Below, in pieces: positions 16,515 through 16,815 of a DNA stretch of 64,000 nucleotides. This DNA comes from Escherichia coli. Its GTDB lineage: Bacteria > Pseudomonadota > Gammaproteobacteria > Enterobacterales > Enterobacteriaceae. The position numbers were made by a program, and so were the translations under genes. The notes under the pieces are model-generated. The model saw nothing but the letters and a program-made list of their open reading frames with translations, did no database searches and was not told the DNA's origin. The stretch's first letter is position 1. Every line of letters begins with the position of its first letter. Location of the stretch: assembly GCF_024502345.1 (NCBI RefSeq), contig NZ_JALDNN010000001.1; one strand, 5' to 3'.

Positions 16515-16528
16515 TCACTATCATAGAT

Positions 16529-16561
16529 AAAAAAGGGCTGCCGACCGGTGGCCCTTTTTTA
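16529..16561 (+). terminator. glmS terminator hairpin, coinciding with the canonical attTn7 position (unoccupied)
   Basis: AAAAAGGGCtgccgaccggtgGCCCTTTTTT about 15 bp after the glmS stop; no Tn7 end sequences follow. Confidence 0.5.
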
Positions 16562-16815
16562 TAACTGACATCAATAAATTCATCTATCTTTCTATATAAA
16601 TATATTCTGAATTATCATTAATGTCTGATAACAAACTTGATTTTTTACTGTTTAAATAATATTTAAACAATAAATTTATATTTTATTTTTGCGTAATTAA
16701 TGTTATTTTTAGATAAAGCCGTCTCTTTGGTGTACTATTCCTTTGAATCAAAAATACACTTATTAATATAAGTGATGATTCATGGTAAAGGATATATCAT
16801 ATCAATGGAGTTTCT

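Follow-up and report, generated by a model that had tools for sequence, protein, structure and literature searches.

The stretch of DNA analyzed here, referred to as the window, comprises 64,000 nucleotides of one strand of Escherichia coli contig NZ_JALDNN010000001.1 (assembly GCF_024502345.1), and the element in question is the spacer at positions 16515-16815 between glmS and a chaperone-usher fimbrial operon. In the list of open reading frames (ORFs) of the window, the plus-strand genes atpD-atpC-glmU-glmS are followed by this operon and then by pstSCAB-phoU. The fimbrial genes were identified as lpfABCD of the long polar fimbria operon lpfO113, with lpfA-, lpfB-, and lpfC-O113 annotated by RefSeq in near-identical genomes. 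The lpfO113 operon, also called lpfB1, sits between glmS and pstS at the O island 154 (OI-154) locus, and Tn7 and other islands have been described between the same two genes (PMC6033998, PMC2990770). All genome counts given below were obtained with 5,426 complete E. coli genomes. The glmS-end part of a 501-bp query across the site was matched in 5,421 of them and the full-length query in 1,911, where the downstream gene is lpfA-O113 by RefSeq annotation; the closest genome was that of E. coli FDAARGOS_943 (99.8%). The interval very probably consists of two adjoining features, the glmS terminator with the Tn7 attachment site attTn7 and the left end of the lpfO113 island, both of them already known. 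The attTn7 site and the fimbrial island are textbook or earlier published features.

attTn7 downstream of glmS is unoccupied

The TnsD-binding site of attTn7 spans positions +23 to +58 from the center of the Tn7 target duplication and corresponds to the last 36 bp of glmS, and the 5-bp duplication itself spans attTn7 positions -2 to +2 (PMC2918618). The window is 100% identical over 16400-16515 to K-12, where the TnsD site was defined. On the basis of the duplication center at 16537, as given by an occupied allele, the TnsD site falls at 16479-16514 and fits the published geometry. The occupied allele is that of E. coli 1EC213, whose sequence is that of the window, interrupted after 16539 by a complete Tn7 with duplication of GGGCT. 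In this genome tnsABCDE, dfrA1, sat2, and intI2 lie between glmS and lpfA-O113 (locus L004, 20076-33320), tnsA adjoins glmS, and the arrangement is ...AAAAAAGGGCT/Tn7R...Tn7L/GGGCTGCCGACC, the slashes marking the joints. The right-end junction reads ...TAATCACTATCATAGATAAAAAAGGGCT/TGTGGGCGGACAATAAAG..., with GGGCT preceding the joint, and the left-end junction reads ...TTTTGTCCGCCCACA/GGGCTGCCGACCGGTGGCCC... (also given as TTGTCCGCCCACA/GGGCTGCCGACC). When the predicted occupied junction, consisting of window positions 16440-16539 joined to the Tn7 right end, was searched against the E. coli genomes, 17 were identical over all 220 bases (100%), and the Tn7 right end was present at this position in 102 of the 5,426. 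Carriers of Tn7 with the K-12-type spacer aligned to the junction query free of gaps, so the spacing of the insertion is equal whatever the sequence of the spacer.

The window itself has a single copy of GGGCT at 16535-16539, and the site is collinear with unoccupied alleles such as that of strain 1943, without the insert of the occupied allele. Matches in the window to the Tn7 end motif TGTGGGCGGACA occurred at the level expected by chance, and none lay near the site. With isolates of identical background carrying Tn7 after 16539, these results bear out the initial annotation in its view that attTn7 is unoccupied. By inference from the sequence, the site is also competent for Tn7: TnsD would bind 16479-16514 and direct insertion of the transposon at 16535-16539, with its right end facing glmS and GGGCT duplicated. 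Tn7 and the lpfO113 island were found together in at least 17 genomes. Tn7 at this position is thus not confined to lpfA-negative backgrounds, unlike among the isolates of PMC2990770.

The insertion point lies within the intrinsic terminator of glmS. The hairpin GGGCTGCC-GACC-GGTGGCCC occupies 16535-16554, preceded by six A residues (16529-16534) and followed by six T residues (16555-16560), and the combination of a G/C-rich 8-bp stem, a 4-nt loop, and a U-run shortly past the glmS stop is that of an intrinsic terminator. The predicted RNA fold has a free energy of -25.3 kcal/mol (z = -4.66), and none of 200 shuffled sequences was as stable. The stem is retained across alleles, in which a T-to-C change converts a G-U to a G-C pair. 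Its G-C portion begins 20 nt past the glmS stop and the A/U-extended stem ∼14 nt past it, so the position of about 15 bp that had been proposed for the hairpin is acceptable. The same hairpin had been named as the place where Tn7 normally inserts, and Tn7 does insert there, but the duplicated pentamer (21-25 nt past the stop) is located within the left arm and not after the hairpin. Insertion of Tn7 strips glmS of its terminator, and the 5-bp duplication rebuilds the full hairpin at the Tn7 left end, before the lpf control region.

The site shares with attTn7 of K-12 an identical 36-bp TnsD site, the orientation of the right end towards glmS, insertion inside the terminator, and a 5-bp duplication centered 23 bp past the end of the stop codon. 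It differs in that the 25 bp from the stop codon to the joint and the terminator itself belong to another allele (GGGCTGCCGACCGGTGGCCC versus GCCCTGCGTAAGCGGGGC in K-12), and in that the duplicated pentamer in this background is GGGCT. Homology to K-12 ends only 1 bp past the stop, and the terminator was therefore considered as a possible part of the island; this was ruled out by strain BS-04, which is free of the island and carries the same terminator. The terminator and the Tn7 insertion point are consequently flank and not island, and the K-12, BS-04, and lpf-type terminator alleles are diverged homologues.

The AT-rich tract belongs to the lpfO113 island

The terminator is followed by the tract at 16567-16815, which comprises 249 bp with 21.7% GC, compared with 51.2% for the whole window, and the longest ORF overlapping it encodes 28 amino acids. 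The initial annotation had described an AT-rich, ORF-free region of about 250 bp; the description holds, whereas the island edge is now refined to ∼16566. The refinement comes from BS-04, which is devoid of lpf genes and aligns to the window from the glmS stop through 16565; the sequence then continues with 86 bp that are K-12-like (∼86% identity), followed by a 99.3% match to the DNA that lies after lpfD in the common lpfO113 allele. By this comparison the island extends from ∼16566 to just past the lpfD stop (22576), and its left edge lies ∼26 bp downstream of where Tn7 inserts. In the comparison to K-12, homology is interrupted 1 base past the glmS stop and resumes at 22720, where the pstS promoter has its first Pho box. 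The island-free spacer of BS-04 (locus L005, 9000-9372), seen in 1 of the 5,426 genomes, either predates the insertion or arose by a clean deletion.

Four types of allele at glmS-pstS account for 5,415 genomes: the K-12-type empty spacer (3,066), the AT-rich tract of the window (1,993, all copies chromosomal), the upstream region of lpf2 of the O157/O55 type (355), and the BS-04-type spacer (1). Genes lpfA-C were present in 1,980 genomes, essentially the same set as the carriers of the tract, and the tract was absent from the 3,066 island-free genomes of K-12 type and from BS-04. The earlier suggestion that the tract marks the island boundary is thereby supported; its finding in island-free genomes would have identified it as core sequence, and no such genome occurs among the 5,426. 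In plasmids (PLSDB) and phages the tract and lpfA were likewise absent, the four PLSDB matches being megabase records of mislabelled chromosomes. We conclude from these distributions that the AT-rich tract is part of the fimbrial island and not of the core.

Candidate control elements upstream of lpfA

Low GC content is a shared property of the glmS-lpfA spacer, at 22-28% in all four versions compared. In E. coli alleles with lpf genes 11-15% divergent from those of the window, the tract retains an overall identity of 84-88% and includes blocks that are invariant across these alleles (ATATAAATATATTCTGAATTAT, AATTAAT.TTATTTTTAGATAAA, TG.TGTACTAT, and AAGGATATAT.ATATCAATGGAG); its proximal 150 bp can be aligned with Pseudocitrobacter. 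These features are consistent with the tract being the promoter and leader region of lpfO113, and the invariant blocks fit such a role. A weak sigma-70 promoter is probably located around 16710-16738, where TAGATA (16710-16715) and TACTAT (16733-16738) fall in blocks shared unchanged by all E. coli alleles. The motif TTGGTGTA(C/G)TAT is also present in Pseudocitrobacter, and TTGGT.GTACTAT recurs in the otherwise unalignable lpf2 region of O157, whose version is TTGGTAGTACTAT. According to the mechanism that we propose, this promoter would be followed by a leader of ∼70 nt that opens with a hairpin and leads into lpfA, and the AT-rich promoter region would likely be bound and repressed by H-NS.

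The putative leader hairpin at 16744-16782 folds in two tiers, with 97% of the cells paired across seven alleles. Two pairs are compensatory and five one-sided changes are kept as G-U pairs on the sense strand; 11 of 500 shuffles performed equally well. This conservation of pairing is suggestive, but not established. The notion that the lpfA mRNA begins with this element as a functional hairpin, starting close to the expected initiation point of the candidate promoter and adding an undescribed post-transcriptional layer to lpfO113 expression, is tentative and, in our estimate, rather doubtful. The element may alternatively be an operator.

Silencing by H-NS is plausible on the basis of composition and by analogy to lpf1. 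The AT content of the tract is well above average, as for acquired promoters that are silenced by H-NS, and the related lpf1 operon has been reported, in references cited in PMC5357955, to be under the control of H-NS and Ler. Of the suggestion that the tract is a regulatory or H-NS-type silencing region, the regulatory part is supported indirectly, by the invariant blocks; matches to the H-NS motif are no more frequent than expected for AT-rich DNA. Within the tract, one site with a single mismatch to the TCGATAAATT-like motif (at 16571) and three with at most two mismatches were found.

Several results weigh against the combination of a glmS terminator with a control region for lpfO113. A pattern scan called no terminator at the glmS end, probably as a result of A/T pairing that draws the T-run into the stem. 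At 9 of 12 matches, the consensus scan returned no promoter on the plus strand, leaving the candidate uncalled. The leader hairpin has a weak single-sequence z score (-1.68), and only seven alleles stand behind it. The H-NS motif is not enriched over composition, shuffled sequences equaling the tract in 8-10% of trials (p ∼0.08-0.10), and no Fur box was detected in the tract, the best match having 8 of 19 positions mismatched and being worse than in shuffles. The literature searched holds no mapped lpf2 or lpfO113 promoter or transcription start, and no chromatin immunoprecipitation, expression, or H-NS data for the tract. Finally, the operon is not intact in this genome, having a frameshift in lpfA and an IS1 element at the lpfC-lpfD junction.

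It is very unlikely that the tract instead encodes a small RNA or small protein of its own. Such a product might be read into the conserved blocks and AT-rich palindromes, for example that at 16644-16674, and into sub-threshold Rfam matches to MicX (25.6 bits, gathering score 75) and CsrC (17.3 bits, gathering score 61). Against this, every Rfam match was far under its gathering score and overlapped the terminator, ORFs in the tract do not exceed 28 amino acids, and conservation peaks beside lpfA in the order promoter, leader, ribosome-binding site. The Rfam search was run at permissive thresholds over 16300-17000 and yielded sub-threshold matches only, driven by the terminator. The palindrome at 16644-16674 consists of 15-nt AT-rich arms (TTTACTGTTTAAATA / TATTTAAACAATAAA) that are 93% complementary and fall in one of the tract's conserved blocks; the symmetry is weaker in other alleles, and the palindrome may have arisen by chance in such AT-rich DNA. 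No GATC (Dam) sites of the kind associated with pap-like phase variation were present in 16515-16830.

State of the operon in this genome

The control region that we propose for lpfO113 stands before an operon that has decayed. In comparison to the otherwise near-identical lpfA of FDAARGOS_943, the window has an extra A at 17042 that splits the gene into ORFs of 93 and 115 amino acids, making it a pseudogene, and IS1 interrupts lpfC within its final 14 bp and parts it from lpfD. This IS1 copy (20702-21469) is absent from every allele compared and appears as an extra segment relative to loci L001 and L004. Given the frameshift and the insertion, the tract cannot drive a working fimbria here, and the control region is probably vestigial in this genome. 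The coordinates of the operon and of the features upstream of it are collected in Table 1.

The coding part of the operon is also a rare allele, at least 95% identical in 17 of the 5,426 genomes (99.9% for FDAARGOS_943) and 80-90% identical in the rest. The window is 99-100% identical over 15915-16815, which comprises glmS, the terminator, and the tract (99.2% for the tract), to the common lpfO113 haplotype represented by strain 1943, but its lpf genes (16816-22576) are only 86-89% identical to that haplotype. The presence of a near-identical tract beside a divergent, rare lpf allele points to a recombination breakpoint near 16815. Relative to the lpfO113 (lpfB1) operon of Shiga toxin-producing E. 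coli negative for the locus of enterocyte effacement and of many E. coli of groups B1, A, and D, the coding allele of the window thus differs in being both rare and inactivated.

A second IS1 was observed at 27616-28383 in the phoU-bglG spacer. It is 100% identical to the first, has the same orientation, and lacks a target duplication. The DNA beyond it encodes homologues of yieH, yidZ, and mdtL, and the stretch that normally follows phoU, from the bgl operon on, appears to have been deleted beside this element. The pair of IS1 copies in direct orientation brackets lpfD-pstSCAB-phoU.

Table 1. Positions of the glmS-pstS features in the window
Feature	Position	Strand	Remarks
glmS coding sequence, 609 aa	14685..16514	+	TAA stop 16512-16514; ORF list, RefSeq annotation of FDAARGOS_943
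TnsD-binding part of attTn7 (+58 to +23)	16479..16514		last 36 bp of glmS ORF
glmS intrinsic terminator	16529..16560	+	A6, 8-bp G/C-rich stem, GACC loop, T6
Tn7 target-duplication site GGGCT (attTn7 -2 to +2)	16535..16539		single copy
AT-rich region upstream of lpfA, putative control region of lpfO113	16566..16815	+	island left end
Candidate sigma-70 promoter TAGATA-17 bp-TACTAT	16710..16738	+	predicted, 8/12 matches
Nested inverted repeat TGAATCA/TGATTCA around CACTTA/TAAGTG	16744..16782	+	consensus fold, 7 alleles
Shine-Dalgarno GGAG, 5 nt before lpfA ATG	16807..16810	+	invariant in all alleles
lpfA-O113 major subunit gene, frameshifted	16816..17389	+	split ORFs; alignment to intact FDAARGOS_943 gene
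lpfB chaperone	17437-18168	+	
lpfC usher	∼18193-20706	+	3' end cut by IS1
IS1, 768 bp	20702..21469	+	9-bp duplication AACAAGGTG
lpfD minor subunit gene	21503..22576	+	island right edge just past stop
Core pstS upstream region	22577..22824	+	alignments to K-12, BS-04, O55:H7; Pho-box promoter from 22720 common to K-12

Discussion

The region downstream of glmS had been pointed out as a hotspot for acquired DNA, and Tn7 and resistance islands are indeed known to land there (PMC2990770); nothing, however, ties the arrival of the lpfO113 island to integration of the Tn7 type. LpfC was used to scan species-representative genomes, and three loci outside E. coli were returned. Pseudocitrobacter and Citrobacter have homologous operons at the glmS-pstS position, and Escherichia whittamii has a partial locus. 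In Pseudocitrobacter vendiensis (locus L012, 5545-13952) the lpf genes show nucleotide identities of 82-84% (76% for lpfD), near the values for the flanking genes glmU (83%), glmS (87%), and pstS (86%), whereas in Citrobacter werkmanii (locus L011, 1-7802) the lpf identity is ∼69%. In both species the operon stands behind an AT-rich spacer of 23-27% GC. The presence of the operon at the same site in other genera, with a divergence of lpf like that of the flanks in Pseudocitrobacter, makes it look like an old resident that is variably present in E. coli and not a recent arrival by way of the Tn7 hotspot.

Entry of the island through attTn7, or by another site-specific integration at glmS, with the tract as the degraded end of an element or an att scar, is accordingly highly improbable. 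The reputation of the site and the start of the island merely ∼26 bp past the Tn7 insertion point would favor such an event, but the island edge (∼16566) and the Tn7 joint (16539/16540) do not coincide, and Tn7 end motifs are missing near the site. The direct and inverted repeats at the island junctions (±40 bp, for the window as well as the IS-free common allele) are no better than those of shuffled sequences, and the island has no integrase or transposase gene except for the later IS1. The search for Tn7 ends or att-site scars that had been advised for this interval thus ended with none flanking the island. The absence of the tract and lpfA from genuine plasmids and phages speaks against a mobile-element origin, and the homologous glmS-pstS operons of Pseudocitrobacter and Citrobacter speak against entry of the Tn7 type. 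Least credible of all is that the tract is an ancestral core spacer and the island begins at lpfA, since, although the tract groups with the glmS side here (99.2% identity to the common allele versus 86-89% for the lpf genes), it is missing in all genomes of K-12 type and in BS-04 (which matches to 16565 only), its count nearly equals that of lpfA-C, and its proximal half is conserved together with the operon in Pseudocitrobacter.

The tract, read as the left end of the island, can be compared with the upstream regions of related operons. OI-154/lpf2 of O157:H7 and O55:H7 occupies the same chromosomal site and likewise ends on the right at the Pho box of pstS, and it has a homologous terminator (88% through 16558) and an AT-rich upstream region with TTGGT.GTACTAT. 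It differs in that this region is 699 bp long and otherwise unalignable, the operon has five genes, and the nucleotide identity of lpf is ∼66-68%. The lpf1 operon (OI-141) of O157:H7 is similar in having an AT-rich region upstream of a long polar fimbria operon in a variable chromosomal segment, but it is another operon at another locus, and H-NS binding, which is reported for lpf1 in references cited in PMC5357955, would be a prediction for the tract.

The outcome of this work is a base-level definition of the boundaries of the lpfO113 island and a census of three alleles at glmS-pstS in 5,426 genomes. The practical consequences are small, and no new biological question is opened. The strain background should offer a usable, neutral landing site for Tn7, with the exact joint expected after 16539 and duplication of GGGCT. 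If the hairpin at 16744-16782 is real, it would stabilize the lpfA mRNA or act as a regulator-binding element.
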